Source: Rotaria sp.
Taxonomy: Eukaryota
DNA length: 25,867 nucleotides
Assembly (NCBI GenBank): GCA_905330235.1
Contig: CAJNUA010000035.1
Location: forward strand, 212,831-238,697
Reading direction: 5' to 3'
Part shown: positions 2,112 to 23,779 of the stretch, in pieces
Position numbering within the stretch: the stretch's first letter is position 1
Layout: the number at the start of each line of letters is the position of its first letter
Notes under the pieces: model-generated
The model's database searches: none
The model's input: only the letters and a program-made list of their open reading frames with translations
Told to the model about the DNA's origin: nothing
Position numbers and translations under genes: made by a program

Positions 2112-2239
2112 TTAATTATTGCCACGGTCGGCACCGATAAGAATACGCCGAATAAACATGTTCCACGATGGAACGTTCAGTTCTAATTGTCTACAATATA
2201 TACTATTACGTTGGCATGCTAATTGATAGAATTTGATCG
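2112..2239 (-). CDS. VWA5A: VWA5A-like C-terminal domain protein, putative terminal exon (…AIKFYQLACQRNSIYCRQLELNVPSWNMFIRRILIGADRGNN*); TAA stop at 2112-2114
   Basis: This is the only acceptor I found (gacaaag|CG at 2240/2239) that keeps phase 1 from the upstream exon and gives an open frame to the TAA. Its pyrimidine tract is weak. An alternative acceptor, gctaag|GTT at 2291, is phase 0 and does not fit the upstream exon. Weak similarity to the VWA5A C-terminus (KAAITFLK…). Confidence 0.3.
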
Positions 2240-2354
2240 CTTTGTCAATTTGTTCGCTCATGTTAGTAGGTAAATAGTTGCAAAGACGAACCTTAGCAAG
2301 AGATAGACATTAGAGTAGGGTAAATGAAAAGATTGAACAAAAAAGAACGACTCA

Positions 2355-2483
2355 CTTTGATTTGTTCACTGTTAAATAAAAAGTCGAACGTATTTTGTTG
2401 TGAAGCTTCCGTTTGAAGAACGAGCCAAAGGAGAATGACACCCGTACCAATCAAACACAGAATGTCGTTACGTATGTTTACAG
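2355..2483 (-). CDS. VWA5A: VWA5A-like C-terminal domain protein, internal exon (AVNIRNDILCLIGTGVILLWLVLQTEASQQNTFDFLFNSEQIK)
   Basis: Acceptor ttgttag|CT ends at 2484 and the consensus donor AAAG|gtgagt is at 2354-2353. The exon enters and leaves in phase 1. The frame matches ORF 2293..2490. I remember it as similar to the VWA5A C-terminus (…WATILAVIWL…EWELLERK…). Confidence 0.65.
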
Positions 2484-2539
2484 CTAACAAAATTAAAGCT
2501 CGTGTCTTTGTACGTTTACAAGAAATTATTCGATCTTAC

Positions 2540-2648
2540 CGAGTGAATTAAAACCTTGTTCGTATAAATAGCGTTCAAGGCCATTGAAAGTATCAAGATT
2601 GATGTGAAGTACATCAGCTAAATCTTTATTCAACGTAAATGAGCCGTC
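2540..2648 (-). CDS. VWA5A: VWA5A-like C-terminal domain protein, internal exon (DGSFTLNKDLADVLHINLDTFNGLERYLYEQGFNSLG)
   Basis: Acceptor atctag|GAC and donor CTCG|gtaaga at 2539-2534. It enters in phase 0 and leaves in phase 1. The peptide aligns to the VWA5A motif NANGSWDLNEDLAKILGMSLEEI. Confidence 0.7.
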
Positions 2649-2708
2649 CTAGATTCGAATCGAATGAAAAAACAATAAATAACTAATGAAGTTTCGTTAT
2701 GATTCTAC

Positions 2709-2810
2709 CTGGGATTGAAGTTTAATAAGTTCTTCAATCATTGTTTTTGTTGATCGAATATCTTTCAGTTTACTGAGAAGTGGAGCATCAACATTTTGAC
2801 CTGAATTCAT
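2709..2810 (-). CDS. VWA5A: VWA5A-like C-terminal domain protein, first or internal exon (MNSGQNVDAPLLSKLKDIRSTKTMIEELIKLQSQ)
   Basis: ATG at 2810-2808 with an in-frame TAA three codons upstream; donor CAG|gtagaa at 2708. An in-frame phase-1 acceptor tcag|GT also exists at 2801/2800, so the exon could instead be internal (2709..2800) and spliced to upstream exons. Aligns to VWA5A …ENHLVQLIYHQNANGS…. Confidence 0.6.
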
Positions 2811-3050
2811 ATAGAGTTACTATTGCAGTATATCTCACAAACCATAACAAGAGATAAATTACCGAATGAGGTAATAAAGTCACTGCAAAAGTTGTGTGTT
2901 AAATTTTCAGTTTGACCATCAAGCTGACAAAGGACAAAAAATGAACAATCGAACTATGAGAAGACAATATAATACGAACCATATACAATGCATCACTAGG
3001 CGTGCGATCATAAACTACAAAATAAAAACAATTAAATATCATTTACCCTT

Positions 3051-3133
3051 TTAACACTGACTAGATTTAGCTGCAAAATCTGCATCGCTCTCTACATTTT
3101 GAATATGCCGTTCAATTTCATCTTTTGTGAATC
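3051..3133 (-). CDS. Hsp70-family (divergent/degenerate) gene, last exon (RFTKDEIERHIQNVESDADFAAKSSQC*)
   Basis: Acceptor tatttag|GA ends at 3134 and the TAA stop is at 3051-3053. Aligns to the Hsp70 motif GRLSKEEIERMV at the end of SBD-beta. The protein stops where the alpha-helical lid would begin. Confidence 0.7.
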
Positions 3134-3191
3134 CTAAATACATTTCAATGGTATATAATTACGATATCAAACATCGAAGTAATTATCGTAC

Positions 3192-3363
3192 TTTTCTGAT
3201 TACTGGGATCAATAGTACATGAAGCTTTGGCACCAGAACGTGCTTCCTCGGCGTCGACACGAAGTATACCGTTGGCATCGATATCCATGCAAATAGAAAT
3301 TTCGAGAGTCTGAGCAGCAAAATTGCTTGTTAGGCCAGAAAGACTGAACTCGCCCAAAAATTT
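3192..3363 (-). CDS. Hsp70-family gene, exon 5 ([57 protein letters not shown])
   Basis: Acceptor ctattatag|AAA and donor AAAA|gtacg. The match to Hsp70 SBD-beta ([36 protein letters not shown]…ITITNDKG) is unambiguous. Same frame as ORF 3145..3357. Confidence 0.85.
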
Positions 3364-3416
3364 CTATAATAGGGAAAGCTATCAAATAACATTTATATAT
3401 GTAGAACACTACACAC

Positions 3417-3663
3417 ATTGTATTTTGTCAGCCTATGTTCGCCTTCAAATATGCGAATGGTAGCTGTTTTCTGATAGGCATAAGCATTTGTGAATAATGG
3501 GCAAAGTTGAGATTTTGTTGGAATGGTTGTATTACGACGAATGAGTGTATGCATGCAACCATGAATATCTTCAATACCTAGGCCAAGTGGGCAGACACCA
3601 AAGAGCAGTAGATCGCAGAAAGATATATCAGACATTGGAATATCTCTCATTCTTGATTCAGAG
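3417..3663 (-). CDS. Hsp70-family gene, exon 4 (…[43 protein letters not shown]…[14 protein letters not shown])
   Basis: Donor AAT|gtgtgt at 3416. The acceptor is either aatttag|C (exon starts 3663) or caag|A (starts 3651). Matches Hsp70 [34 protein letters not shown]…VYEGERAMTKDN. Same frame as ORF 3393..3650. Confidence 0.8.
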
Positions 3664-3763
3664 CTAAATTTTTAGTTTATTCTTATTTGAAAAGTGATAT
3701 CAATATAGAATGATGATTAGTAATTAATCGTCGCATGCCTGTATCAAATCTTTCACAACTTAC

Positions 3764-3855
3764 ATTAATTTCATTTCTTTTCCGTAACGCCGCTTGTAAC
3801 TTGATCTTGTATTTTCCGGTACGGAGTCTAGCACACTGTCGTCATAGAATTGCTT
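3764..3855 (-). CDS. Hsp70-family gene, putative exon 3 (KQFYDDSVLDSVPENTRSSYKRRYGKEMKL)
   Basis: Acceptor cttctag|AAG with an in-frame TAG immediately upstream. Strong donor AAT|gtaagt leaves phase 2, which is what exon 4's acceptor requires. No recognisable Hsp70 motif. Confidence 0.4.
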
Positions 3856-3908
3856 CTAGAAGTGAACAAAATTTCCAAACCAAAAAGCATTTATGTTAAT
3901 GTACGCAC

Positions 3909-4036
3909 TGAGTAGACAGTAAAATCCGTTGCGGATATTTTTCTCAGCGTACGATCACGTGAGCTTCGAGATTCACGCATAGAATTCTTAGTGTGACCAC
4001 GTTCATCACCGCGTGGCGAGTCATGTAACCTTGTTT
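3909..4036 (-). CDS. Hsp70-family gene, putative exon 2 (Arg/Ser-rich: ETRLHDSPRGDERGHTKNSMRESRSSRDRTLRKISATDFTVYS)
   Basis: Acceptor tacatag|AA is compatible with the phase-1 end of exon 1. Donor TCA|gtgcgt is phase 0 and matches exon 3. The frame is open, but there is no homology support. Confidence 0.35.
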
Positions 4037-4093
4037 CTATGTACATTTTTCGTTCTCCAAAATTATCTAGGAATTAATATGATTTTAACTTAC

Positions 4094-4358
4094 CCATACT
4101 AATGGTCGACATACGTTGTGGTGCTGCAGGAGCCTGCATATAACTGCTACTATCTTGTGATCCAAACGACGCCATATCTGTTGACAGTGATATTGTTGAG
4201 CGTGATGTTGGTGGTGGCGGTGGTGGCGGTGGTGGGGGAGGAGCAGTAAAACCAAATAGAGAATTATTAGCAGTATAGGTATAGGAATTGTATCGTGATG
4301 ACAAGTCAACACCTAGAACGAACATAAACTTAGAAGGTAACACACCTGACATGTACAA
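4094..4358 (-). CDS. Hsp70-family gene, exon 1 (MYMSGVLPSKFMFVLGVDLSSRYNSYTYTANNSLFGFTAPPPPPPPPPPPTSRS…MSTISMG)
   Basis: ATG at 4358 and donor ATGG|gtaagt at 4093. GVDLSSRYNSYTY weakly resembles the Hsp70 phosphate-1 motif GIDLGTTYSCVGV. An 11-residue poly-Pro run is encoded by (GGN)n at about 4205-4245. Same frame as ORF 4074..4358. Confidence 0.5.
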
Positions 4359-6807
4359 CTGACAGTGAACGATTGAGGATAACGTTCTACAACAGACAAA
4401 GTTCTTATCATTGTTCTTTCTGCTTTAGAAAAAAATTAAGGAAAACTGTAGATGATATCGATTGGAAATGATAAATGTAATTGCTACTATTCTGAGATGA
4501 CATTGACTATCCAAATAGCAACCTTTCTATAGAATAGTCCGGTATCAGGTTTATAATAAAGATAAATTTACGGCAGTGGTCTAAATTTTAATTTCTCTAA
4601 CATTTGGTTAACAGGAATCGAATGGTTCACATTGTTGTTCCCGGTTTATGGAAAGCAAGCTAAAAACTAACTCATCAGTCGATGAATAAAGTTTCATTAA
4701 ATGTGAAAATATCAATCGAAGGTTCAAGTGAAAATTGGACCACAATGAATTCTACCACCGTCATAAAAGCAATAATGACGTGCTATAATGTTTTTATCGA
4801 TGCATCATTATTTGTTATTGATATCGATCATAAAGTCAAGTTTTTTCTGGAGCTCTAGCAGAACGAAAAGTGTCTTGAAAATATTTTGCATAACTTTTCG
4901 AAATCCGATCGAATGGAAATTGAACTGTGAGATTAAAAGTATGAAACTTTTTAACGTAAAAATTTGTATTTTTGATATTTTTCATAATCTTCTCACTGTG
5001 ATTGAGTATATAACTGCTAATTTTCATGCTTCAAACTGTCCTCTACAACAAAGGACTTTTGGTAAGGCATTAATACAAACTACGGTGCTTATCTTCCAAC
5101 TTGCTAAGTTTTTTGAAAAATCACTGTAACATTCCTATTCAAATTGAGATTATCGACTATTCTCTATCTAACAGTATTGATCCTAGGTCATGTCGGAAGA
5201 GCCAATGTCATCTTCCGGTCTGTGTGTCTTCACTTCAAAAGAAGCTAATAAATTCTACCAAACCTGTTGAAGATAACAATCATACTTTGTTGCAGTACAA
5301 TAAGCAGTTCGACTTCTGATGATATCGCTAGCATTTTTTTTCGAGTTTTTTGATCTAACAGGATAGAACAGAATGGGTTTTATGTATCACAACGCAATGT
5401 AGTATTTTATAGTTTGAACTCTTAAAAAATCTGAAACTTTCCACAAATGTTAACTAGATAGTTACCTATTTATAGACAATAAACGAGAGTAGTATGAGAC
5501 GGGACTATACATTTCATTTTAAAAGATTTTTTCCCATCAATATTGGTGACAATTTTGTCACAACAGTCGCTAAAATAGTACAGATTACATCCATTGTCGA
5601 TGTCATGGGCTTGATGGCTAAGCATCGAATTCAAACTTCAGAGTCTAACGGAATCTCACTAAGACACATTGAGAGGCGTTACTTCTCATTTGAGCTGTAT
5701 AGATGAATATCGGCGTCTATTGGTCGCACACTACATAGTGTTGGTTGAAAACTATTTTTATAAAACTACAGAGATTATATGCTAGATGATCGGTATAAGT
5801 AGTCATTCTTATGAGAAACCTGTTTAATCTCTTATTTTACGCTTCACAAATTAAGTTTCTTGCATTGATCTTCTTTGATAATTTCATTTATGAAACGATT
5901 AATTATAGCGAATATATTAAAAATATCTGTCATCTACTTCGTTCATCGTGAAAATTATGATCAATGAACAATTCATTAACAATGTATTCCAGTGTGAATG
6001 TGGATATCAGTACGAATCGTAGAAGAAGAGACTCATACCCACACATTTGAACTGTTGAAATTTATACAGTGATACTATTTAGCAAGTTGACGTTTTCAGT
6101 GCCAAAACTCTAATTATTGATATATAATTTGAATGATAGCTTTAGCCACCATCTTTGCTCGTGTTGTCAGCATTCCATAGGGTATATCTCTTCTTGATAC
6201 CATTTGTAACTGTTGAGAAAAAGTTTTTCTTGTACAAAAAAGAAGGTTTTTCTGAGGCTTTTAAGGTGTACAGTGTAACAGGCATATCTGTCTGACTTTG
6301 TAATTGATGAACGATTGGAATTTTACTGTTTACAACGTTTCGCCTTTTGCGGTTATTGCTCAACCAAATTTCACAAATAATTTACTGAGTACGACTTATG
6401 TATGTTGTTTGAATTTTTGAATGAAACATTCAACTACGAATTTCGACTAATGACAGAAGTAACCAATTAAATTAACCTATGCGATACTGAAAATGATACT
6501 CTGACAGTCAAAAGGTGCAATAAAATAGGAAAATGCATACATTTTGATTTTATTGATTGTCACTCAAAGTAGTCTCAAGATCTTAAAGGCAAGCAAACAT
6601 GTTTTACGAAAAATAAATGTGTGTTAGTTATGGCTGTGCTTTAATTATCATCAAGACAATAAACAAGGGCAAAACTATGAAAAAAGAATTGTCGACTTCT
6701 GATTGTGTAGTAAAATCCTATTATATTCAATAGATTCAAATGCAGATCGACTTTAATTCAAGGAAAGGAGTAGTATAGATACAAATAGGCAAAAATTCAA
6801 ATCTTAC

Positions 6808-6924
6808 CTCGATCTACGGTACTATTAGTGATGGGAGTCTGGCCAGGATAGTAAAATGATAATGATGATGTTGTTGTTGTTGTTGGAAAAGGAGAAGAAA
6901 TACCAGCAGCAGCAGCTCCGTATT
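6808..6924 (-). CDS. Low-complexity Q/P/S/T-rich protein, exon (EYGAAAAGISSPFPTTTTTSSLSFYYPGQTPITNSTVDR)
   Basis: Acceptor tttctag|AA and donor CGAG|gtaaga. The exon enters and leaves in phase 1, compatible with the upstream exon. Contains (TTG)5 and (GCA)4 microsatellites. Confidence 0.5.
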
Positions 6925-7003: not shown

Positions 7004-7228
7004 CAGGGACATAGGCTCGTGTGGCATTATAAAAGCTACTCTCATTGTTGCGGTTGGCGTCAGAACTAAAATCTAAAAGAGAACGAAAGTCATATTTCTT
7101 GAATCGCATTAACTGACCAGATGAAAAGTTTTGTGAATAGCTACTCGAAAGCATCATTGGCATATTGATTGCATCACTCTGAGATCTAAAGGCAGGCGGA
7201 GGCAGAAATGTGGCTTGCATCTGGGGCC
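7004..7228 (-). CDS. Low-complexity Q/P/S/T-rich protein, exon (RPQMQATFLPPPAFRSQSDAINMPMMLSSSYSQNFSSGQLMRFKKYDFRSLLDFSSDANRNNESSFYNATRAYVPG)
   Basis: Acceptor cggttatag|GG and donor CCTG|gtaagt. Frame matches ORF 6825..7220. Phase 1 at both ends. Confidence 0.6.
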
Positions 7229-7344: not shown

Positions 7345-7632
7345 TCGAAGAAGCTTGTGATGTTTCAAAAGCATTTTGAGGAATGGGGTTTTGCAGGCGT
7401 AGACTAGCAGGAGAAATTTGCACACCAGAATACGCCCCCGTTGTGCTTCCTGTTGGCGTTAAATGAGAAAAAGGCATTGACATTCCACCTCTACCTCTAG
7501 CTGCTGCTGTTTCTTGTTGCATAGGTTGTTGTTGCATACATTGTTGCTGCATAGGTTGTAGTTGTACTGGCGGAGGCCGTGGTAGAGATGATTGCCAAGG
7601 TACAGGTGGCATTGGGGGTTGATATGATGGAA
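7345..7632 (-). CDS. Low-complexity Q/P-rich protein, exon (PSYQPPMPPVPWQSSLPRPPPVQLQPMQQQCMQQQPMQQETAAARGRGG…ETSQASSS)
   Basis: Acceptor ttcttatgcttag|TT with a pyrimidine tract and an in-frame TGA further upstream. Donor TCGA|gtaaga. Frame matches ORF 7229..7612. Phase 1 at both ends. Confidence 0.6.
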
Positions 7633-9450
7633 CTAAGCATAAGAAGAAATTGAAATTTGATTGAAATTCGTATCAGCTACATATTGATAGCTTAAAAAGT
7701 AGGACGAAGGGCATTTTTTTTCTGGTCAAATTAGGCCTTTCTAATTTCCGAAAGAAACCAATGAATCCTAACAGGAATAATTAATGCAAACGACCATTCA
7801 GTTGAGAAAGACGTTCACTTAATTCTACGACAAGTCAAAATTGAAGTCTTGCTGTGGGGATTTTGAATGATTCTTTGTGTTTATTGACGTAATACAGTCA
7901 TTTCAAATTAGAATATTAGTGATTAGTTTTCGAATACATGAACAACTAAGCAACTATAGAGTTGACATTTTACTATTAGAAAGAGTAAATACTGGAACAT
8001 ATATTTATGAGATACGTTCATATTTCAGAAATTTCCACAAGCTCGATAACTACGCAACAGCCTATACCAAAAGTTTTGAGAAATATTGAAAATTTCAGAA
8101 ATTTTCTTTTTTTTGGGAGTTTAACAATTGATAAAATTTTGACCGTCTGTTCAGTTATACACACATCTGAATGCGATCAAACTGTTTTATTCACAATAAA
8201 ATCTGATGGATCTTCATGGGTACTTACAAGACGAAAAACCTCATATTTGTCAAAGACATGCCTATGCATGTATGAGCAACGAAAATTATGACTTGACATA
8301 AATGTGTGTCATGCTGATTGGTCACCGCACATTCGTATAAGAAAACGACGACAATATCCTTATTTACCGGAATGAATCTTATATAATTTAAACCTTCATT
8401 CTTGAATTTTTTTTCTCAATATAAAAAATGCAGATTTATAGCTACCCTAGTTGTTGACGCAGTTAATAATAAGATACTCCTATTTTACTTTAACATTAGG
8501 ATGACATTAGATGTTCTCGTTTACAAGATACTGAACAATATAGAAACTAATTCTTGTGCATCAGCAAAATATTCAACTGATGTTGTGTCCACTATCCAAA
8601 ACATTTTGCACATTTATTCACAACAGGAAATGTACAGCAATTGAAAAGAGCTTTCCTGATGTTCAAAATCTCAAGATCTGTATTAGTAAGCAATACATTA
8701 GTTGTGTTCAAGATCTGTCAAAGATTATTGTATTTTTTTTACAAATGCTCAAAATATCATCTTTGACTAACATTAGGATTTAGTAATGAGTTGACGAATA
8801 TCATTTCTAAAGTAAAACTCTTGCAGAATTCAAGTAATACTCAAAAAAGAAAATATTCAAAATAGCTTCCATCAGTTGATGTTAAAAATAATCCTTACAA
8901 TGTAAGAATAAGCGCATTTGATAGCAAAGAAGCATATCTATAAAGTTAATCTCATATATGACCTATTGCTGTTTGTGACATTATGTCAAAATAGTACAAG
9001 TATAGAAATATTGAAAAAAATGTAAGACAATTAGGAACTCTTGATTGTATAATAATAACCTCTTATTTTCAAAAGGACTAAATATAACTCGAATCTAGTC
9101 AAAATTGGGAATCAACATAAACATTAATAGGTCAAAATTCAGATCTTATATTCACCCGTCTTACTACCGATGTGAGCAATGGTAGAAAGCGATGTTGCAG
9201 GTATAGAACTTCGTTTTGATGACTTCTTTTCCCTTGATATGGAACTTAGCGGTGATTTACCAAGTGTCAACCTAATAGAATAAGTCGATGACTACATGAT
9301 ATATCAGAATCTTGAAAATACGAACTTTGGCGTCTTAGTAACAGATTTTTGTTGTTGTTGAATTAATTCTCGTGGCAGCCTTGGTAACGATGATGGCGGT
9401 AATTCTATAAGGTATATAATAAAATGAAGTTGATACTAATAAAAATCTTA

Positions 9451-9551
9451 CTTGTAGTCATACGTTTCTTGGCTTCTATCTCTATTCTATTAGCAGTAGA
9501 CATTGGGATTTCTTTGGCTTCGCGTTTCAAAACCAACCGAAGAAGGCTCAT
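9451..9551 (-). CDS. Candidate 5' coding exon (MSLLRLVLKREAKEIPMSTANRIEIEAKKRMTT)
   Basis: ATG at 9551 with an in-frame TAG just upstream. A 33-codon open frame ends at the strong donor ACAAG|gtaagat in phase 2. No homology. Not phase-compatible with the Q/P exon at 7632 unless unseen exons intervene. Confidence 0.2.
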
Positions 9552-11795: not shown

Positions 11796-11927
11796 CAGAT
11801 GTTGAATGATAGGAGGTTTCCATCACATCGTTGATAAAGTCGTAATCGAACTCACCACCATCATCATCTAATTCTTTCGATTCTGAACGTACGTGCAACA
11901 GACGTTTTATCGGTGTTGCTTGTCTCG
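11796..11927 (-). CDS. Acidic cassette-type exon, copy 1 (132 nt, phase 1-1: RQATPIKRLLHVRSESKELDDDGGEFDYDFINDVMETSYHSTSG)
   Basis: Acceptor tttacctttag|CG and donor TCTG|gtaagt. Only one frame is open. Paralogous to the exons ending at 15157 and 18485, with shared flanks (aattgcataacttaccagatg). Confidence 0.55.
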
Positions 11928-12024: not shown

Positions 12025-15000
12025 GCTGTAAGTATTTTTTCGGTTAAGTTAAATATGAACTAAATCAAGAAGTTTTCCCATTCGATTTATCATGCTAGCT
12101 CAGAGAGCTAGTTTTGAAAAAGAAATCCTGTCACTAAAGTCAATTTTTCTTTTCAAGAGAAAAAGAATTATTTTCTATCCAGAAATGTACTGAAGTCTCT
12201 TATTTTCGTACACGCATATCGAGTATTTTTAATAATTTAAGTTAATTTTTTTAGTTAGCTTATTTTGTTTTTAAATAAATGCGGTCGTTTTCTAGAAGAC
12301 TTTCAGTTTCTCGTTAAAGATAATTTTGAATGAAGTTCAGCTTTTTTTCCAAAATGTTACTAGCACTGCTCTATAGGTTGATAATTACAGCAACATACAT
12401 TGTTCCTTGAATACAATTCAAAGATAAATAAAGTTTTTCTTTATTAGTGCTTTCCGCAATTGCTCATTTGAAGAATGTCATAGGTTCTTCGACGTTTCCT
12501 ACCTCACTTTTTTGTTCTTCTTTTCACTCACTAAAAGCGAGAACTTTCGTCTCGTCATAATTTGTCAGCTTGATTTCCGTACCAAGGACAAGCAAAACTA
12601 TTTAACAATGTCGTCCGTTGTAGTGTTTCTTCAAACTTAAAACTTGTCATCAGTATAAAAACATGTTAAAGTAAAAATGGAAATTCTGTAGGAATGCAAG
12701 AATGACCTCTTCAGTTTAATATTATCCTTAATTGTATATATTTCGTAGAGAAAAATTTACTTGATTTTAGTGGAGATGTTTTGTGCATTTTGAAACCAAC
12801 AATAAGCCGACAATGACTTAATATGAACATTTCCAAGACTCTTTTACTAAGGGAGGCGAATCCTTACTGAAATTGATGTTTCCAGAACTGATGGAAATAA
12901 TCAAAAATGTTTGAGCTTTTTTTGCTATACAATCTTTCTCTCTCGGATGACTTCTAACAACTACGAAATACACGCCAATATCGATTCAATAACGTGCTAG
13001 CCGTAAAGAAACGAGATATTTCTGCAATTGTGAACTGTGACCACCTTATACATTCCAATAGTACTTATAAACTTATTGTCGCATATATTCATTTCTCGAT
13101 TTTCATTCGTTTGCTCCGTACAGCTAAAGTAGCATCAGCAAACCGTGAATGTTTCCAAAATGAATTCAGGTATCAGAATTCTTTTACAAAAAATCGCTTA
13201 AAAACGAAAAAGTGTACATAATACCTTCGAAATTCGTGCATCTCATACGCTTGTCAGAACACTACAACATGTCCAGTTCGAACTTTAAGAATGTATTTGC
13301 ATCTAGATTTACATATTGATAGTTCTGAACGGATCGATTACAACCAGCGTTGTTACCTATTCTGCTTTTTTTATTTGTTCTGAGCGTTTAGATTTCATTG
13401 CTTTTATAATTTTTAGCAATACTGTTAGATTCTACTAACTCATCTGCTCGAAAATGTCGGAATAATTCCTATTAATATTGAAATATGTTATATCTTTATT
13501 TGTCTCAAGGAATGAGTTGAACTAGTAATGCTGCTTAAACTCTGAAAATCGCATTTCATTGATTGATTTATTTCTGGTTTACCTCAACGTTCCAGCATTC
13601 GACCAGATACTCTGAAAAGACAACAGATATATAGCGCTTACTAATCAAAAATAGTTCGATTTCATTCATATGAAATAGTTTTCAAAGAGCTGTGTTTTTC
13701 AGATATTCTAATTTCGTATGAATCTCTTGTTTGTCCTATAATTTCATAAATTTTCTTTTACACATTCTAAATGAGATTGATTGGGTTTAACCGATGATGT
13801 GATCACTACCAAGACTACTGCTAAATTAACTACATCTACCTAGGTGATATTTTCATATCATTACTGATCGTTGAGTAAAAATCCCAACCCTCTTTTTGTT
13901 TATGTCTAAATATATTATAATGAAAAAACTTAATGTTAGAAATTGAGATTTAGTCATTGAGAATATATTTTGGTATCAATAAATACTTGAAGAAAGATTA
14001 TTAATTAAAACATGCTTCCTGCCTGGTAAAAGTAGAATTTCAAATTTTTTCTATTTTTTCCAAGTCATTCTCATCTTTTTGACACTAAAATTTGCAACAC
14101 TATTTTCGACTAAAGAGCTAGTCTTATCATGTCTCATGAAGCTCATCAACAACATCGTTAGTACGGGTATGCATGGGGAATACAAATTGAGATTAGTCAC
14201 AGGACCGAACTTTTTTTAGACAAATGCTAGACATATGGAACTGTATTTTACTTACTTGGGTAAATATTAAAAAAATTGTTGAAATTTTTCGAATACTTGT
14301 ACAGAAGAAGTTATAGTCATATATGTACGTATGTGATCGATGAGTGTCATTCATATGAATGTGATGCATTCAATTTTCTGTATAAAAAACACGCACGATC
14401 AGACATTGATTTTCGCACAATTATTGGGGTTCAAACCTTTTGTGTGATCGTGCACTTTTCTTCAGTTTTCAACATGAGAAAGGATGATTAATATTTACTA
14501 TTTTCTTCAAATCGATGACAACGATTGATAGTTATGACTAATTTCACGAAAAGTTTTACTTTCTGCCTTTCTTGCCACTTGAACGATGCTAGAAATTTGA
14601 ATTCGAAAGTTTAGTTTTTAAAGCGATTTAAACGAATCCAATTTTATTCAAAAGCGAACAATGTGATTTCTATGCTAGAAATCATTATAATGCGTCAAAC
14701 ATACGAATAATTACACCATGTGGTTAAAAATGATCCAAAAACCGTGAGGAGCCATGAGAACTCAATGAATACCTCCAGTAATATGATTAAGAGTAGAGAA
14801 TTGATTTCTAATGATTTCTTGTGATTTTCTTTCAATTCTAAGCATTTCCAATAACTCTCATTGTGTCGTGGTGAACTAATAAAAAACTGATTTTGGGTAA
14901 TAGAAATCACGAGAAATCAGAAACATTATTAGAAATCGAAGAAACCATGAAATAAGTTTATACGCGTTTCGTTTTATCAAACTTTTCTTGTGATAATCAC

Positions 15001-15230
15001 TACTAATAATGAAAGTTGCGTTACATACCAGATACTGAATCAGAAGACACTTCCAAAAGTTCGTCGGAGTAGACATCCATATCATCATCTTCGCTGTCTT
15101 CATCATCTAATTCTAAAAGTTGTTCTAATGAATGCTTTGTTGCTGCAGGTTTCTTGTCTAAAAGCAAACGCAGATATTTTTTCGCTTCAACGACATTGTA
15201 TTATCTTAATCACTATGAAATAAATATTAC
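12025..15230. repeat. Tandem segmental duplication, copy A (about 3.2 kb; includes acidic exon copy 2)
   Basis: Long stretches are roughly 85-90% identical to 16205-18560, for example 12418-12510 with 16570-16700 and 12990-13330 with 17102-17440. The plus-strand ORFs 12994..13221 and 17106..17399 are paralogous. Copy A has extra segments at about 13426-13800 and 14520-14990 that copy B lacks. Confidence 0.8.
15029..15157 (-). CDS. Acidic cassette-type exon, copy 2 (129 nt, phase 1-1: KKPAATKHSLEQLLELDDEDSEDDDMDVYSDELLEVSSDSVSG)
   Basis: Acceptor gcttttag|AC and donor TCTG|gtatgt. Only one frame is open. Confidence 0.55.
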
Positions 15231-16204: not shown

Positions 16205-18560
16205 TAGAAAGTTAGATATTTTTTCGACTAAGTTACATATGCACAATATCAAGACGAAGTTTTTCCATTCGATTTATCATGTGATCTCGAGACGTTTTTT
16301 ATGTAAAAAGAAGTGAAGAAAGTCATTTACAAAATTTGATTTTCTTTTCTATGACGAATATTAGTTGTTCTCTATAAAGAACTGCACTGAAGTTACCTCT
16401 TTCAAAATACTTATATCATCTATTTCTATTGATTTAAATCGTCTTTTTGTAGGCAGCCTGCTAATTTTTTAATATTTATAGCCATTTTCTGGAAGACTAT
16501 CAAGCTTTTGTTCAAGATGATCTTGAACGAAGCTCAGTCTTTTTTCAAACTATTGAATAGTGTTCCTGAAATACAATTAAGAGATAAATAAAGTTTTTCT
16601 TTATTAGTGCTTTCAGCAATTGTTGCTTAAAAATTCATTTGAATCTCTTTTTATAGAAACATAAGTTTTCGTTTGAAGAATGTCATAGGTTCTTCGAGGT
16701 TTCATACTACAGTTAACTATGTCATCCGTTGGAGCGTTTCTTCAAACTTAAAACTTGTCATCAGTATAAGAACATGTTAAAATAAAAATGAAAATTCTGT
16801 AGGAATGCAAGAATGACCTCTTCAGTTTAATATTATCCTTAATTGTATATATTTCGTAGAGAAAAATTTACTTGATTTTAGAGGAGATGTTTTGTGCATT
16901 TTGAAGCCAACGATAAGTCGACAATGACTTAATATGAACCTTTCCAAGATTCTTTTACCAAAGAAGGCGAATCCTTACTGAAATCACTTTTTCGAGAACT
17001 TGTGCAAATAATCAAGAATTTCTGAGCTTTTCTTTGCTAAACAATCTTTCTCTCTCGGATGACTCATAACAAGTACGAAATACACGCCAATATCGATTCA
17101 ATAATGTGCTAGCCCTAAAGAAACGAGATATTGGTGAAGTTGTGAACTGTGACCACCTTATACATTCCAATAGTACTTATAAACTTATTGTCGCATATAT
17201 TCATTTCTTGATTTTCATTTGTTTGCTCCGTACAGCTAAAGTAGCATCAACAAATCGTGAATGTTTCCAAAATGAATTCAGCTATCAGAATTCTTTAAAA
17301 AAATCGCTTATACACGAAAAAAGAGTATGTAATACCCTCGAGTTTCATGCATCTCATACAGCTGTCAGAACACTACAACATGTCCAGTCCGAACTTTGAG
17401 AATGTATTTGCGTCTAGATTTACATATTGATAGTCCTGAATGGATCGATTACAACCAGCGTTGTCACCTATTCTGCTTTTTTTATTTGTTCTGAGCGTTT
17501 AGATTTCACTGCTTTTATAATTTTTAGCAATACTGTTAGATTCTACGTACTGCTAAATTAACTACATCTACCTAGGTGATATTTTCATATCATTGCTGAT
17601 CTTTGAGTAAAAATCCCAACTCTCTTTTTGTTTATGTCTAAATACATTATAATAGGAAAACTCAATGTTAGTAATTGAGATTTAGTCATTGAGAGTATCT
17701 TTTATTACCAATAAATACTTGAAGAAAGATTATTAATTAAAATATGCTTCCTGCTTGGTGAAAATAAAATTTCAAAAGTTTTCTATTTTTTCCAAGTCAT
17801 TCTCATCTTTTTGACACTAAAATTTGCAACACTATTTTCGACTAAAGAGCTAGTCTTATCATGTCTCATGAAGCTCATCAACAATATCGTTAGTACGGAT
17901 ATGCATGGGGAATACAAATTGGGATTATTCATGGTATCGAACTTTTTTTAGACAAATGCTAGACATCTGGAACCGTTTTTTACTTGTTTGGGTAAATGTT
18001 AAAAAAAATTGTTGAAATTTTTCGAATATTTGTACAGGAGAAACTAGGGCCATATATATATGATATATGAGTCTCATTCATATGAATGAGATACATTCAA
18101 TTTTCTTTTAAAAGAACATGCATGGTCAGATATTGATTTTCTCACAATTATTGAAGTCCAAAACTTGTGTGTGATCGTGCGTTTTTCTTTAGTTTTCAAA
18201 ATGAGAAAGGATTTATCATACGTCAAGAATAAGAATATTTACTCTAAGCAGTTAAAAACTGTAGAATACTCTCAGAAGTTAGTAAAACTCATTAAATATG
18301 TTTGATTTTATCAAAATCAGCTCGTGATGTTTGCTACCGATAATAAAAGTTGCATAACTTACCAGATGCCGAATAGAAGGAAGTGGCTATGTTAATATCG
18401 TCCCAGTCGAAACCCACATTAACGTCTTCAATATGTGATTCTAACTGTTGTTGTAATAAGCTCTCTTCTGAATCAAGTTCCTCGTCTAAAAACAAACACA
18501 GATAAGTTTTTTCTCTTCAACGTTATTGTATTCTCTCATTCACGGGCATTGGTATGGATG
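16205..18560. repeat. Tandem segmental duplication, copy B (about 2.35 kb; includes acidic exon copy 3)
   Basis: See copy A. An approximately 1 kb unique spacer (15230-16205) separates the two copies. Confidence 0.8.
18363..18485 (-). CDS. Acidic cassette-type exon, copy 3 (123 nt, phase 1-1: EELDSEESLLQQQLESHIEDVNVGFDWDDINIATSFYSASG)
   Basis: Acceptor ttgtttttag|AC and donor TCTG|gtaagt. Only one frame is open. Confidence 0.55.
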
Positions 18561-20292: not shown

Positions 20293-20345
20293 GTTTGAGA
20301 TATTTAGAGTTTAAATGATCGAGTTCCACTTACGACTCTTCTTAC

Positions 20346-20368
20346 CATCATAGTCGGCGAATAGTTGA
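20346..20368 (-). CDS. VWA5A: VWA5A-like gene, 23-nt micro-exon (CQLFADYD), or the start of a terminal exon 20311..20368 ending …DGKKSRKWNSII*
   Basis: Acceptor ctcttgtag|T supplies the third nucleotide of the phase-2 codon left by exon F. Downstream there is both a donor GATG|gtaaga in phase 1 and an in-frame TAA at 20311-20313 if the donor is ignored. Confidence 0.35.
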
Positions 20369-20427: not shown

Positions 20428-20524
20428 CATTCGTCACTTGTAATCATCAAATTGTTAGCTTCACATTGTTGTTGTAGTGCTTGCTGTTTTTCTGCCGTTG
20501 CACTAATAATTTCGATCTCTATAT
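20428..20524 (-). CDS. VWA5A: VWA5A-like gene, exon F (DIEIEIISATAEKQQALQQQCEANNLMITSDE)
   Basis: Acceptor aaataaatag|AT fits phase 1 from exon E. Donor GAATG|gtatgt leaves phase 2. Confidence 0.5.
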
Positions 20525-20582
20525 CTATTTATTTTTTGAATATTAATGTATTTGAATATCTATTCTAGATTAACTAACATAC

Positions 20583-20891
20583 CATTTTTCATTTTATCTT
20601 CGAGTTCATTTGCTTTTTCGTGCTCGTTCAATGAATAACGATACGTATGAATAATAGCCATCATCGTATCAAATTTTGCATCACCACCAGCTTGATAGGA
20701 AATTTTTTCACAAAGTTTTTCAACATCAGCAACTGATTCGTTTTTGCTTTGAATCGATGCACTTTCGAGTGAAATACGTGCATCAATCAATTTTTGTTTC
20801 ATCGAAGCTAAATTTGATACATCACCATCCCATCCGATGTATGGTAACAGGTCAACATCTCGATCAAGCATAACATCAAGCAGACGAACAC
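20583..20891 (-). CDS. VWA5A: VWA5A-like gene, exon E (GVRLLDVMLDRDVDLLPYIGWDGDVSNLASMKQKLIDARISLESASIQSKNESVADVEKLCEKISYQAGGDAKFDTMMAIIHTYRYSLNEHEKANELEDKMKN)
   Basis: Acceptor tttctgttatag|GT and donor AATG|gtatgt. Frame matches ORF 20560..20871. Confidence 0.8.
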
Positions 20892-21185
20892 CTATAACAG
20901 AAAGTACATAATGTAGATATTCTCATTAATAATATGAATTAGAAAAAAAATCAACTTATTGAAGTAAGGTATAAAGATAAAATGATCATCATTTAGACAA
21001 AACTGAAATACAACTTGAATACAGGCACTTCAGTTATGACGGTATCAACATTTTTGACCTTCGTATCCAGCTCTAGACATTTAGCTCATTGTATAAGAAG
21101 CATGTAGATAAATTTTTCCTTTTTGTACTGTTGTGTTACTAATCAATTATTAAGACTATCTATACAATTTTAGATTTCTACTAAC

Positions 21186-21960
21186 CTGGTTGAAGTGTTC
21201 GTGCAACTGTTTTAGTATGACGTTCTTCGATGGCAACAAAACTAGTGTATTCACTGACAACAGAATGTTTGATGCTTAGATCGATAAGATCTCGTTTACA
21301 GTGAACTTTGATCAATTCATTTTCGCTCTCGTCCACATGCAATAATCCATTTTCATAATCGTCAATTATCGCTCGAGCAGTTAGACAATGTAGAATACGT
21401 CCTCGGGTTGTTGTCATAGTACTGCTAAATACAGTTGTAACAAATTCTTGTCCATCGATAGTAGCCGTCAATATTGCCTTATGGCAGTTTTGTATGAATC
21501 GATAGACACTAATTCGCATACCGTTGAACAAGGATCGAATCATTTTCGGTGCTTGCATATTGAATTTTTGTTCTTCATCTAAATGACCATGCCAATCGAT
21601 TGATATACTTGTAATACACGGTTGTCGAATATGTTCGAGAATGTTCAATACTTTCGTTTTCCATTTTGATCGATAGTTCGAATCGAATATTGTTGCTAGA
21701 CCACCTCCACTTGCTCCACGAGCTAATTGTTTTAAAGCATGCTTGTCAGCAACATTACCTATTGCACATGTAAATAGACGATCACGACACATAATCGATT
21801 GATGTTCGAGTAGTGTAAGAATTGATTTGAAATCATGGATATGTCCATCGGATAGAAGAATGAATTGCCGACCAAATTTCGACGATATTGATGATGGTAA
21901 AAGTGAATAACGTTGTAGAACAGAAAATAGATCGGTGTTACCGCGATGGACAAGTGAATG
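21186..21960 (-). CDS. VWA5A: VWA5A-like gene, exon D (second half of the vWFA domain plus the conserved middle region: HSLVHRGNTDLFSVLQRY…ARGASGGGLATIF…SEYTSFVAIEERHTKTVARTLQP)
   Basis: Acceptor catattctag|CAT and donor CCAG|gttagt. Frame matches ORF 21181..21792. Aligns with VWA5A GGTEILAPLQNIY…IARASGGTSEFI…SSFTAFIAINKELNKPVQGP. Confidence 0.9.
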
Positions 21961-22023
21961 CTAGAATATGTCAAATGTATAGATTTCAGTGGGAAAAAAT
22001 CATGCTCAAAGCAAATTACTAAC

Positions 22024-22097
22024 CAGAACAAAATGTTTGGCTTTGTCAAGATTCTCTTTTGTGGTTGGTGTTGAAATTGGAAAACATTCATCATTAT
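22024..22097 (-). CDS. VWA5A: VWA5A-like gene, exon C (DNDECFPISTPTTKENLDKAKHFVL)
   Basis: Acceptor ctatttag|AT and donor CTG|gttagt. Aligns with VWA5A SSYEACFPESVKYTQQTMEEALGRVKLM. Confidence 0.8.
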
Positions 22098-22152
22098 CTA
22101 AATAGTTCAAATTTGAACAGTAGAATAACACTACTGACGATCATCTTATTAC

Positions 22153-23026
22153 CTGATCCGAAAGCAACTATATTGAAAATTGTATTTCCATCGTTAACTT
22201 TTAAATTCATAAGAAATAAATGAGCTAATTGTTTAGCTTGTTGTACATGACTGCCATCCATCGAATTGGATGCATCGATAATAAAAATAATTTCAACTCG
22301 TTCGCTCGAATTCGTTAACGTTTCAAATCGCGGATAAAAAGTAAGCATGCATACTTGAGAATTATGATTGTTCGATGTTGTTATTTCGTCGTCATCATCC
22401 AATGACAATGTTTCATTTGATATTCGAGGTAAATTAGCACTTTTGAGTGTGATTGAAAGAATAAAATCTCGATCAAGTAAGATATTATCGACAAGTTCGA
22501 CCATGGCAATACAATCAGTTAATTTTCGACGAAGACGATGTGTCGGCGAAAATAGTTTGGTTATTTCGTAAGGCATTCGAATTGATGCTTTGAAACTGAA
22601 TTCAACTTTTTCATCAACAATACCAATAGATCTTACAATCGATTGATCTTTAGTTTCAACTGCTTGTTTCGATTGCCATGAAGCCATTTTAGCTGGAAGA
22701 CGAAAGATGATATCTCCATTTTCGATTTCTAATTCAGCAACATAGGTTATTTTGATGATGACTTCATTGTTCGCTGGTAAATTACCAACAGCTACGCTAA
22801 ATACTTGAGCTTGTTCTTTGTGCATCAAATAGGCACCATGACTCTTTTCGATTGCTTCTCGATATTCTTGTTTGGCTTGTTCTTTTTCTTTGACGACACC
22901 TGTAATAACTTTATTGTTGATATGTGCTTCGAAACCGCACACGGTCGAATTTTCATCAAGAGGAAATACATATTTGGCTTCGATGGGTGTCGAACTCGTA
23001 TTGTGATAGACTTGATACAGAACAAC
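22153..23026 (-). CDS. VWA5A: VWA5A-like gene, exon B: VIT domain (…EAKYVFPLDENSTVCGFEAHINNKVITGVVKEK…), acidic linker (LSLDDDDEITTSNN), and the first half of vWFA with the MIDAS motif DASNSMDGS
   Basis: The acceptor …ttcaacaaaaaaaag|GTT follows a poly-A run with a pyrimidine tract just upstream. Donor TCAG|gtaataag. Frame matches ORF 22094..22942. Aligns with VWA5A FFVFPMDEDSAVYSFEALVDGKKIVAELQDKMKA…FIIDRSGSM. Confidence 0.9.
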
Positions 23027-23094
23027 CTTTTTTTTGTTGAAAAAAGAAACATGATGAATTAATATTATTTCAGTAGAACAATAGACATGATTAC

Positions 23095-23234
23095 TTCAAC
23101 TGTAGCGTCAACAATTTGAGCACGAATATGAAATGATTTAAGTGGTACACGTTTTCCCGACGATGGACATACTAAACCATAGTCTTGTTCGGCTACGTCA
23201 ATAACTTCATCGTCAATTGTCAACGGAACTTCGA
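23095..23234 (-). CDS. VWA5A: VWA5A-like gene, exon A, start of the VIT domain (VEVPLTIDDEVIDVAEQDYGLVCPSSGKRVPLKSFHIRAQIVDATVE)
   Basis: Acceptor cttattttccag|TC and donor GAA|gtaatc. Aligns with VWA5A CGLLTLHREPLPLKSISVSVNIYEFVAG. Confidence 0.8.
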
Positions 23235-23293
23235 CTGGAAAATAAGAGGTAATCTAATCAAAATTTATTCTAATAACAAATACTCATTATTAC

Positions 23294-23444
23294 CATGTTC
23301 GCTCAATTTTAATGCATTTTGCTTATGATGAACAATTGGTAATCGTTCTAATTCGATATTAAGCGTATCATGTGGTACCCATGAAACTTCCAAAATATAC
23401 AGTAAACGTTGTTGATTGAGTTGATAGATTGCATATTCATTATC
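23294..23444 (-). CDS. VWA5A: VWA5A-like gene, N-terminal extension exon (DNEYAIYQLNQQRLLYILEVSWVPHDTLNIELERLPIVHHKQNALKLSEH)
   Basis: Acceptor tatcgaaatag|GAT and donor CATG|gtaata. The phase-1 end matches exon A. There is no in-frame ATG, so a further upstream exon is needed. Confidence 0.55.
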
Positions 23445-23719
23445 CTATTTCGATAAAAATCAGATTAGCAATTGCACGATTAGGCATGTTGCAAGATCGA
23501 AATCGACATAAGAGTCTCGGGCCTAGTTTTGTATCTAATATTGAATCTTGATTTTTATTTCTAGTGTCTTTATTCTAGTGTTTCACATCTATATTAACAG
23601 AGACTCGACTGAGACACAAAACTCGAGCCGCTCCGTCTTCGAACATGTTTATGTTCAAGTCTAGGACATATAAGTTGGATGATTTCGAATTTTTTCGTTA
23701 AAACGAAATTAAGCATCAC

Positions 23720-23779
23720 TCGAACATAGATCAAAGATTGCTTTTCGGCAACGGATGGCGTGCTCTTGATATAATACAT
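23720..23779 (-). CDS. VWA5A: Candidate first coding exon of the VWA5A-like gene (MYYIKSTPSVAEKQSLIYVR)
   Basis: ATG at 23779 in ORF 23594..23779. The only phase-0 donor is the weak CGA|gtgatg. Speculative. Confidence 0.2.

Follow-up and report, generated by a model that had tools for sequence, protein, structure and literature searches.

Does the minus strand of this locus encode one large protein or several smaller ones? The window analysed here is a stretch of 25,867 nt from the bdelloid rotifer Rotaria sp. Silwood2. A preliminary description had read it as a VWA5A-type gene in two distant pieces, a VIT-vWA part at 23444-20346 and a C-terminal part at 2810-2112, with acidic exons, Q/P-rich exons and an Hsp70-like gene between them. 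In our preferred reading, to which we assign a probability of about 0.7, positions 25867-2112 on the minus strand (to which all exon coordinates below refer) make up the 3' two-thirds of a single PARP4 (vault PARP)-like gene, a paralogue among the many that each bdelloid genome carries. The predicted protein would comprise about 2,090 aa, of which 445 aa would be encoded upstream of the window and 1,648 aa within it, in the order (BRCT-like)-PARP catalytic-VIT-vWA-conserved middle region-acidic and Q/P/S-rich disordered linker-Hsp70 substrate-binding domain (SBD)-two short connector exons-MINT.

Family assignment

The best non-rotifer matches to the VIT-vWA part are PARP4 proteins (36-41% identity, E about 1e-130 to 1e-140), and VWA5A is absent from the named non-rotifer matches listed, all of which are PARP4 or PARP4-like. 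Rotaria matches to the same part carry PF00644, and in the annotated product P0019 (99% identical) the PARP catalytic domain is spliced directly onto the exon equivalent to 23444. These best matches and this junction place the gene in the PARP4-like family and overturn the VWA5A assignment; VWA5A also has VIT ahead of vWA and a ...TSFVAIEE...-like middle region, and the preliminary description drew a comparison at the C-terminal motif too, but VWA5A has no PARP catalytic domain, whereas the bdelloid gene has one upstream. Residues 1-445 of P0019 map only outside the window, with a gap of 2953 nt before the exon equivalent to 23444, and the exons that encode the N-terminus and most of the catalytic domain lie beyond the upstream window end. 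The interval 23445..25867 is the 3' part of an intron, which in L001, a locus 98.8% identical, measures about 2.95 kb. The supposed gene start at 23779 falls inside this intron, in an ORF (23779-23594) that has no Pfam match.

The exon chain from the catalytic region to the middle region

We built a chain of 27 exons from 23444 to 2112 that uses GT-AG introns throughout, is free of stops and encodes 1648 aa. Each piece has homologues, a collinear position, an open frame and consensus splice sites, and we infer that all 27 exons would be joined in one mRNA in Rotaria sp. Silwood2. Introns within the domain-coding parts measure 45-116 nt, plus one of 294 nt.

Exon P-a (23294..23444; phase 0 to 1) encodes the final 50 residues of the PARP catalytic region (DNEYAIYQ...) and is 98% identical to P0019 residues 446-495. 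The VIT domain starts in P-b (23095..23234), placed by homology and splice sites, and is followed in P-c (22153..23026) by the start of vWA (Pfam VIT at chain residues 82-192, VWA at 342-498). P-d (22024..22097), also vWA, recurs as the same 25-aa exon in Adineta ricciae and Rotaria magnacalcarata. P-e (21186..21960), again placed by homology and splice sites, holds the remaining vWA and the conserved middle region (...SEYTSFVAIEE...), and it is here that the annotated model P0019 ends, by read-through into the intron. The middle region extends into P-f (20583..20891; phase 1-1; amino acid identity 75-82% to L008/L006 and 63-66% to A. ricciae), after which come P-g (20428..20524; phase 1 to 2) and a 23-nt exon (QLFADYD; 20346..20368; phase 2 to 1). 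Pfam supports the VIT and vWA exons proposed earlier for 23444-20346 (VIT E=4e-37, VWA_3 E=6.5e-13), and the splice-site analysis likewise recovers the donor at 20346 (G|gtaaga). The 23-nt exon has a counterpart of identical length, position and phase at the Silwood1 locus L008, and both A. ricciae and R. magnacalcarata have an exon of 7-8 aa at this point.

The linker and its swollen introns

All three acidic exons of the preliminary description were found; each is phase 1-1 and flanked by good GT-AG sites. A1 (18363..18485) has homologous acidic exons in L008 and is weakly constrained (3 non-synonymous differences from L001, 2 from L012); A2 (15029..15157) has a homologue in L008 at 5524-5604; and A3 (11796..11927; ...DFINDVMETSYHSTS) matches 'DDWSTTDFGFLDCLDETSY' of A. 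ricciae P0036. Three tandem 1-1 acidic exons also occur at L008, a finding that, like the absence of A2 from one assembly (below), speaks neither for nor against the alternative cassettes proposed earlier. The A1-A2 and A2-A3 introns contain two copies of a repeat, at 16713..18212 and 12602..14485 (no strand assigned), which are 85-93% identical. The second copy is a breakpoint of the structural difference with L012, a locus from a different assembly of this species that lacks window positions 13436-16712, the segment carrying A2, and with L001, a locus of another assembly that has no similarity to the window left below 16713.

The Q/P-rich exons at 7632-6808 are all phase 1-1, as described, but number four instead of three: Q1 (7345..7632); Q2 (7118..7228), from which onward the chain is collinear with R. 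sordida P0137; Q3 (7004..7072); and Q4 (6808..6924), with donor G|gtaaga at 6808 and a Q4-like block in L005. The phase-1 donor of Q4 is taken up by X1 (4094..4312; phase 1-1), which is poly-Pro and S/T-rich, followed by X2 (3909..4036; phase 1 to 0) and X3 (3764..3855; KQFYDDS...; phase 0 to 2), the last conserved in L005 and L011. The junctions X1-X2-X3-H1 are exactly those of an independent annotated model, P0134 (100% identical). Because the linker consists of symmetric phase 1-1 exons, exon duplication, loss or skipping keeps the frame.

Outside the 27-exon chain, 9452..9551 (MSLLRLVLKREAKEIPMSTANRIEIEAKKRMTT, phase-1 donor) may be an exon that has decayed or is optional. Its match is to exon 1 of the L005 model (E=4e-5), a paralogue relative to which both the window and L012 have a 77-nt frameshifting deletion; to judge from coordinates, it is probably where a separate annotated model of 233 aa begins in L012.

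Sequence constraint

The frameshift at 9551-9452, the apparent lack of constraint on A1, the presence or absence of A2 between assemblies, the many paralogues per genome and a catalytic part not visible within the window would all fit a copy decaying into a pseudogene, whose open chain is a leftover helped by symmetric exons. We regard such decay as highly improbable, since all 27 chained exons are free of stops and frameshifts, every splice site is canonical and the exons are conserved. Against L012, 2252 nt of chain exons contain 3 substitutions (0.13%) and 0 indels, compared with 101 substitutions in 11023 nt (0.92%) and 5 gap columns in the non-exon remainder, a seven-fold difference in substitutions; the linker exons alone account for 3 substitutions in 1156 nt. 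Against L001, exons diverge by 0.43% and the remainder by 1.40%. The C-terminal exons differ from L002 by 16 synonymous and 16 non-synonymous changes, which also counts against decay at a dN/dS of roughly 0.3 (a rough estimate from difference counts).

An internal Hsp70 substrate-binding domain

The Hsp70-like stretch does lie between the Q/P-rich and C-terminal exons, but the separate gene or nested remnant proposed at 4358-3051 does not hold up. Pfam HSP70 covers only profile positions 382-519 of 599 (E=1e-25), the stretch aligns to BiP residues 381-520 (E=1.9e-27), no sequence coding for an Hsp70 nucleotide-binding domain (NBD) is present anywhere in the window, and the apparent TTG start and stop of the ORF are read-throughs into introns. 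Judged by its sequence, the stretch is an internal SBD of the PARP4-like protein with no ATPase domain, start or stop of its own. Exon H1 (3417..3663) encodes the interdomain-linker motif (CDLLLFGV) and the first half of SBD-beta, as identified by Pfam HSP70 and BiP matches; H2 (3192..3363) encodes the second half, supported also by homologous loci; and H3 (3062..3133; phase 1-1) encodes the first lid helix (FTKDEIERHIQNVE...AAKS).

Two small exons connect the SBD in frame to the MINT exons. L1 (2980..3014; (I)YDRTPSDALYM) is conserved in L003, L005, L006, L008, L011 and L014 and included in the homologue proteins P0002, P0003, P0006, P0010, P0036 and P0207; tblastn detected no L1-matching exon in L004/P0027. 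The phase-1 donor of L2 (2863..2923; LDGQTENLTHNFCSDFITSF|G) feeds the acceptor at 2800, and P0005 reads ...ITSFGQTIGAPLL across the L2/C1 junction.

In the preliminary version, a VWA5A-type gene with a same-strand intronic Hsp70 pseudogene, 6808 was spliced directly to 2800. Both sites are phase 1 and the junction would be in frame, and the order VIT-vWA-middle region-C-domain resembles VWA5A as described there. Homologues do not use this junction, however, and eight exons (X1-X3, H1-H3, L1 and L2) lie between its ends. Adineta, Didymodactylos and five Rotaria species all retain the SBD, L1 and L2 at this location and in frame, the exons of the SBD show constraint, and an NBD remnant is missing from the window; with the PARP4 matches and the upstream catalytic domain as well, this version is scarcely credible.

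The C-terminal MINT domain

A coding block for the C-terminal domain was recovered where it had been placed, together with the phase-1 acceptor at 2800. It comprises C1 (2709..2800), the start of the MINT / PARP4 MVP-ID domain, C2 (2540..2648), from which human PARP4 aligns from residue 1574, C3 (2356..2483), placed by homology, and C4 (2112..2291), with a TAA stop at 2114-2112 and AATAAA/ATTAAA motifs 80, 176 and 196 nt downstream of it. We identify the piece 2800-2112 from sequence matches as the PARP4 MVP-interaction (MINT, PF26156) domain: precomputed Pfam gives PF26156 PARP4_MVP-ID, and the sole PDB match is human PARP4 (residues 1574-1641 by single sequence, 1574-1697 by profile, E=2e-4), whose MINT domain is delimited at residues 1562-1724 (PMC12280208). 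On the other side, only one of the three human MVP-contact residues is kept (S1614; K1618 is N and R1689 is Q), and the AlphaFold model of the piece is poor (pLDDT 48).

One gene or several

The window chain is collinear with several single-gene homologues, all of which are gene predictions. Residues 356-1647 align with residues 1-1293 of R. magnacalcarata P0207 in one BLASTP segment (51.7% identity), and collinearity extends to the full-length models P0195 and P0199. P0195 of A. ricciae (2063 aa) is compact, with introns of about 50 nt; it carries Pfam PARP, VIT, VWA and HSP70 domains, and BRCT weakly, below the Pfam cut-off, and its C-terminus aligns with the SBD-MINT part of the window. P0199 of Didymodactylos carnosus is a single-gene model of 2098 aa in the same order. 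In the A. ricciae genes P0036 and P0027 (5.1 kb), every intron is 44-93 nt and the linker and SBD start share one exon. P0207 has the same exon pattern as the window, with short domain introns and 480-1548-nt introns only in the linker, and in L008 conserved blocks keep the same order over 11.5 kb, among them the 23-nt exon and the three 1-1 acidic exons. The outline of a single gene of about 21.5 kb proposed earlier is therefore supported, though its family, nested Hsp70 and last junction do not. The several radiation-induced MVP genes and expanded PARP family of bdelloids (PMC10809525) were also counted for a single PARP4 gene.

Kilobase insertions may instead have broken an ancestral PARP4-like gene in Rotaria into at least two transcription units, an outcome we consider unlikely. 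The products could be a PARP-VIT-vWA protein ending near 20311 and a linker-Hsp70 SBD-MINT protein whose start would lie in H1 or ahead of X1, with an internal promoter or spliced-leader trans-splicing at a strong acceptor as possible routes. Internal starts are conceivable, as in-frame ATGs occur at 2810, within H1 and a short way ahead of X1; the stand-alone C-domain protein from ATG 2810 is not supported, given the intact L1 and L2 exons upstream and the homologues, since in all that extend upstream of MINT the domain is preceded by ...AAKS(V/I)YDRKPxDPLYM|LDGQTE..HNF...SF|G-Q. Bdelloid introns of 1.9-4.2 kb, the size of those in the linker against about 50 nt elsewhere, are very unusual, and read-through of the 20346 donor meets a stop at 20313-20311. 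The Rotaria sp. Silwood2 annotation, too, splits the locus (models of 1117, 103, 233, 377 and 172 aa). Separate linker-SBD-MINT models of 600-830 aa exist in several Rotaria species, some Met-starting (P0136, P0137, P0141 and P0197), under the UniRef name 'PARP4 MVP-ID C-terminal domain-containing protein'; L005 has partial tandem linker-SBD-MINT copies with no adjacent PARP part, and the structural difference in L001 points the same way.

Against such a break, nine of nine linker junctions are open-frame and phase-compatible, divergence is lower in the linker exons than around them, and the same layout in R. magnacalcarata is predicted as one gene. Many 'stand-alone' models begin at a Met inside a domain and are annotation truncations: P0004 starts inside SBD-beta, and P0138 starts in the PARP4 middle region and is identical to the C-terminal 779 aa of P0195. 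AATAAA/ATTAAA is absent within 300 nt after 20311, a weak point as only about 0.75 would be expected by chance. In the single PARP4-like gene that we favour, five linker introns would have swollen to 1.9-4.2 kb, partly through the repeated 1.5-1.9 kb element; this growth would explain both the five or more pieces into which gene predictors split the locus and its first appearance as two distant ones.

Relation to known proteins

Human PARP4 (1724 aa; PDB 9bw6, 9bw7, 11jf) has the same order of PARP catalytic domain, VIT, vWA, long linker and C-terminal MINT, and shares the motifs LQxxDGxW/F, GxxSL and CxxLEL. The bdelloid proteins differ from vertebrate PARP4 in lacking the PF26166 region, in their many paralogues, in two of three MVP-contact residues and in the Hsp70 SBD, or in some paralogues calmodulin, added between vWA and MINT. 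With canonical Hsp70s (BiP, Hsc70, DnaK) the inserted piece shares the DLLL..V interdomain-linker motif, SBD-beta (about 45% identical to BiP 381-520, estimated from the alignment) and the first lid helix, but it has neither an NBD nor a complete lid and is embedded in another protein. PARP4-like proteins with appended 14-3-3, actin and ubiquitin-like domains have been described (Perina et al. 2014, PMC4245714), and PF00244, PF00022 and PF00240 also appear among our VIT-vWA matches. These likewise join a clade-5 PARP core (PARP-VIT-vWA) to a lineage-specific extra domain; in bdelloids, by contrast, the extra domain precedes a retained MINT, a combination unmentioned in that work.

The residual interest of the locus lies in the pan-bdelloid architecture PARP-VIT-VWA-linker-Hsp70 SBD-MINT, which we found in no paper. 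Within it, MINT would anchor the protein in the interior of the vault, as it does in human PARP4, and beside this anchor the ATPase-less Hsp70 SBD would be a nucleotide-independent peptide-binding module, a holdase or cargo-adaptor.

The upstream exons are predicted to belong to a vault PARP

The window, eukaryotic and A+T-rich with a G+C content of about 32%, is 98.8–99.9% identical to contigs in several Rotaria sp. Silwood2 assemblies, and its protein matches point to the bdelloid genus Rotaria. Each feature of the preliminary description is on the minus strand. Rebuilding the minus-strand exons between 23444 and 20346 recovered the VIT and vWFA domains that the preliminary description had placed there (Pfam VIT, E=4e-37; VWA_3, E=6.5e-13; VWA, E=1.4e-10), but not the VWA5A-type protein to which they had been assigned. 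VWA5A is a VIT-vWA protein of approximately 790 aa that lacks a PARP domain. Exon 23444–23294 encodes the last 50 aa of a PARP catalytic region, the only PARP part inside the window, and its product is 98% identical to residues 446–495 of P0019, a Silwood2 protein model of 1117 aa that is 99% identical to the window. Residues 1–445 of P0019, comprising the PARP catalytic domain (PF00644) and the sequence upstream of it, map past the window end and are separated from this exon by a 2953-nt intron. Positions 23445–25867 are therefore intronic, including the ATG-initiated open frame at 23779 that had been taken as the gene boundary and for which no Pfam family match was found. The close matches of the VIT-vWA part are rotifer proteins, each of which also carries a PARP catalytic domain. 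Among the matches listed, the best from outside the rotifers are PARP4 proteins (36–41% identity, E ~1e-130 to 1e-140), and all non-rotifer matches bearing a name are PARP4 or PARP4-like. These names, together with the PARP domain spliced upstream, rule out VWA5A, and on sequence grounds we assign the upstream piece to PARP4/vault PARP (clade 5 PARPs).

The downstream exons encode a putative vault-docking domain

The four exons at 2810/2800–2112 encode a 172-aa product. The C-terminal domain proposed at this position is genuine, although its relatives lie in PARP4 and not in VWA5A. Homologues of the product carry a precomputed Pfam assignment, flagged as weak, to PF26156 (PARP4_MVP-ID), the MVP-interaction (MINT) domain of PARP4. 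When the single sequence was compared with all PDB sequences, the sole match was human PARP4 (residues 1574–1641), and a profile of eight bdelloid sequences likewise matched human PARP4 alone (residues 1574–1697, E=2e-4). It is on the precomputed PF26156 and the PDB match that we identify this piece as the predicted MINT domain; our local copy of Pfam, from which the model is suspected to be missing, returned no match for either the product or its homologue P0001. In human PARP4, the MINT domain that docks the enzyme inside the vault shell comprises residues 1562–1724, and contacts to MVP are made by S1614, K1618, and R1689 (PMC12280208). Our alignment retains the serine at 1614, while K1618 is replaced by asparagine and R1689 by glutamine, with an arginine one position earlier; MVP binding by the bdelloid domain cannot be assumed. 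An AlphaFold2 model built from a 7-sequence alignment was all-helical and of low confidence (pLDDT 48), a level at which fold matches would be meaningless.

The Hsp70-like stretch is predicted to be an internal domain

The Hsp70-like exons between these two pieces match only positions 382–519 of the 599-position Pfam HSP70 profile. They correspond to residues 381–520 of BiP (E=1.9e-27), which cover the interdomain linker, SBD-beta (the beta part of the substrate-binding domain, SBD), and the first lid helix, and the remainder of the lid is absent. A tblastn search with an approximate Hsc70 NBD query (E<=10) found no ATPase domain on the gene strand of the window. The supposed start (TTG 4358) and stop (3054–3052) are both intron read-throughs, and the exons splice in frame to the linker exon X3 upstream and to a small connector exon downstream, as they do in all homologues. 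These features speak against the nested or independent Hsp70 gene described earlier and argue for an internal domain of the surrounding protein.

In four homologous proteins (P0004, P0010, P0013, and P0002), the Hsp70 fragment is joined straight to the C-terminal domain by the sequence ...AAKS(V/I)YDRKPxDPLYM-LDGQTE..HNF...SF-G-Q..APLLSKLK. Both connector exons that encode this junction are intact in the window, at 3014–2980 ((I)YDRTPSDALYM) and 2923–2863 (LDGQTENLTHNFCSDFITSF|G), and the second ends in phase 1, compatible with the acceptor at 2800. This acceptor is thus real, as had been proposed, but its partner is the donor at 2863 and not that at 6808. The peptide GVDLSSRYNSYTY at the start of linker exon X1 resembles the N-terminal GIDLGTTYS motif of Hsp70; the resemblance does not extend to the paralogue contig L005 and was treated as a coincidence.

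A proposed 27-exon chain links all parts in frame

Joining the open segments through the strongest GT-AG sites at their borders gives a chain of 27 exons from 23444 to 2112, stop-free and encoding 1648 aa. Together with the 445 residues encoded upstream, this would give a protein of ~2,093 aa. After a 23-nt exon (20368–20346), the acidic exons A1–A3, the Q/P-rich exons Q1–Q4, and X1 are all phase 1-1, which bears out the phase-1 linker of the preliminary description, with four Q/P-rich exons in place of three. The phases that follow X1 are 1->0, 0->2, 2->0, 0->1, 1-1, 1->0, and 0->1 into C1, the first exon of the C-terminal block. Twenty of the introns measure 45–116 nt and one 294 nt; the other five, all in the linker, measure 1860, 3205, 3101, 4163, and 2495 nt. 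Open frames within the long introns gave no Pfam match, so the inserted DNA is not assignable to a transposon family.

The junctions X1-X2-X3 and X3 to the first Hsp70-like exon are exactly those of P0134 (377 aa, 100% identical), an independent annotation of another Silwood2 assembly. P0134 was also the sole match in a search with the linker peptide; linker sequences diverge too rapidly to be retrieved by word-based searches. Other paralogues have a 'DLVRMFGADFKDL.../EISDPFEANFKKL...' exon, for which no homologue was found between 20346 and 18485. Two short repeats fall within the linker exons: an exact (GGTGGTGGC)x2.9 repeat at 4210–4235, read on the plus strand, underlies the run of eleven prolines in X1, and another at 7514–7564 encodes the MQQQ repeats of Q1. 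Counts of poly(A) signals after candidate stops were uninformative at the A+T content of the window.

The proposed exons are also conserved. Compared with L012, a contig of the same species (99.2% identity), they differ by 3 substitutions in 2252 nt with no indels, as against 101 substitutions and 5 gap columns in the remaining 11,023 nt; within the linker exons (A3, Q1–Q4, and X1–X3) there are 3 substitutions in 1156 nt. Differences from the Silwood2 contig L001 amount to 0.43% in exons and 1.40% outside them, and those from L002 (92% identical) to 5.3% in exons and 8.0% in introns, with synonymous and non-synonymous changes numbering 16 each. This constraint does not extend to exon A1, which has 3 non-synonymous changes relative to L001.

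Related bdelloid genes favour a single stretched gene

The same domain order is found in two Adineta ricciae paralogues, P0036 and P0027, whose genes span 5.1 kb with every intron between 44 and 93 nt. A single exon runs from the last part of the linker into the SBD, and these compact genes leave no room for a second promoter. Among complete models, Pfam assigns BRCT (weak, below cut-off), PARP, VIT, VWA, and HSP70 to P0195 (A. ricciae, 2063 aa), and PARP, VIT, VWA, and HSP70 to P0199 (Didymodactylos carnosus, 2098 aa); the C-termini of both align with the SBD-MINT part of the window. Within Rotaria, the pattern of the window recurs in P0207 (R. magnacalcarata, 1294 aa, partial), a single gene model whose introns are 48–111 nt in the domain-coding parts and 480–1548 nt in the linker only. 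It shares the tiny exon, two acidic exons, S/P-rich exons, the SBD, connector exons of 12 and 21 aa, and four MINT exons, and one BLASTP segment (51.7% identity) pairs chain residues 356–1647 with its residues 1–1293. P0137 of R. sordida likewise aligns with chain residues 1040–1645. Collinearity with the window extends over 11.5 kb in the Silwood1 locus L008, which has the same 23-nt exon and three phase 1-1 acidic exons ~450 nt apart. All of the supporting proteins are gene predictions; no RNA-derived contig was present among the matches, and P0008, P0011, and P0012 are genomic since they contain intron read-through. As models from Adineta, Didymodactylos, and Rotaria share one order, the architecture is ancestral among bdelloids, and the window preserves each of its parts, collinear and with the frame intact.

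Separate transcripts produced by a split at some point along the linker, perhaps through an internal promoter or spliced-leader trans-splicing, which occurs in bdelloids, would agree with the Silwood2 annotation, where the locus is divided into models of 1117, 103, 233, 377, and 172 aa. The block 9640–9300 is conserved with the first exons of a 557-aa model in L005 and, in both the window and L012, bears a 77-nt frameshifting deletion relative to it. The exon-like segment 9551–9452 was left out of the chain; the downstream half of the block retains an ATG and a phase-1 donor and, judging by its coordinates, has apparently been annotated as the beginning of the separate 233-aa protein. Given the compact Adineta genes and P0207, we regard such a split as unlikely. 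The locus is better described, as far as comparison of sequences can tell, as an ordinary though unusually stretched multi-exon gene with a fragmented annotation.

Two structural differences between assemblies concern this gene. L012 lacks 13436–16712 (3.3 kb, holding exon A2) and runs directly between the two intronic repeat copies that bound it (12602–14485 and 16713–18212, 85–93% identical). The frame survives loss of A2 because this exon is phase 1-1, and the absence is either a recombination/deletion polymorphism between the repeats or an assembly collapse. L001 (711 kb, with a 98.8%-identical PARP4 part) carries sequence unrelated to the window below 16713 (L001 21956–27333); where the remainder of the gene would be expected, its opposite strand has an unrelated open frame of 174 aa. 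The assembly that holds L001 contains the C-terminal region only as the 2.3-kb contig L002, at 92% identity. This divergence, seen in contig CAJNVN010000044.1, reflects either haplotypic variation or an assembly error at the repeat.

Architecture varies among paralogues

In some bdelloid PARP4 paralogues, a complete calmodulin with four EF hands follows the 23-nt exon within the linker. P0027 of A. ricciae (locus L004) has the Hsp70 SBD and then MINT after this calmodulin, and calmodulin forms the end of models P0022 and P0035. On L005, a single Rotaria contig, two linker-Hsp70 SBD-MINT modules lie in tandem (1700–6576 and 9169–11456). A related contig, L006, has a PARP4-calmodulin gene at the position of the first copy, so the 3' module has undergone duplication or recombination on its own. 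Two further models deserve mention. Ahead of its SBD, P0141 (Rotaria sp. Silwood1, 800 aa) has a linker that consists of an extended array of S/P-rich repeats, each of ~30 aa and containing FG/FS motifs (SQSMSNIPPVSSVSTSPFSFGGSNVASSQF...), which recalls FG-type low-complexity repeats. P0139 (364 aa; SBD and MINT) has a Pfam match to the DNA-PKcs CC1/2 region at residues 288–338 (E=5e-8), which is probably due to a fused neighbouring gene model.

Implications

This locus, and apparently many of its Rotaria paralogues, is annotated as four or five separate 'unnamed protein products'. Some of these start mid-domain, and merging such models would change the bdelloid protein catalogue. Full-length Adineta models are already in public databases, unremarked. 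The symmetric phase 1-1 exons offer a clean example of a disordered linker that gains and loses exons, and absorbs kilobase insertions, with its frame unbroken.

Extra domains (14-3-3, actin, ubiquitin-like) appended in particular lineages have been described for PARP4-like proteins (PMC4245714), and bdelloid PARP and MVP genes are expanded and stress-induced, with several MVP genes expressed in A. vaga (PMC10809525). Our literature search found no mention of PARP4, or of any bdelloid PARP, carrying an Hsp70 domain, and no paper describing this PARP4 variant common to Adineta, Rotaria, and Didymodactylos, in which the remaining interest lies.

The arrangement would place an Hsp70 SBD devoid of its ATPase, and in some paralogues calmodulin, directly N-terminal to the predicted vault-docking MINT domain. 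To our knowledge, PARP4 is the sole enzymatic component of the vault, and its role is still unclear. One speculative proposal, which we consider improbable as it stands, is that bdelloids have made of the vault PARP a family of ~2,000-aa proteins in which the SBD or calmodulin before MINT acts as a chaperone-like cargo receptor inside the vault. Bdelloid PARPs and MVPs are induced by radiation and desiccation. The gain of an Hsp70 client-binding domain ahead of the vault anchor offers a concrete hypothesis on what vault PARPs might bind and, if it is true, the vaults of these desiccation- and radiation-tolerant animals would bear a client-binding or Ca2+-sensing module beside the ADP-ribosyltransferase.
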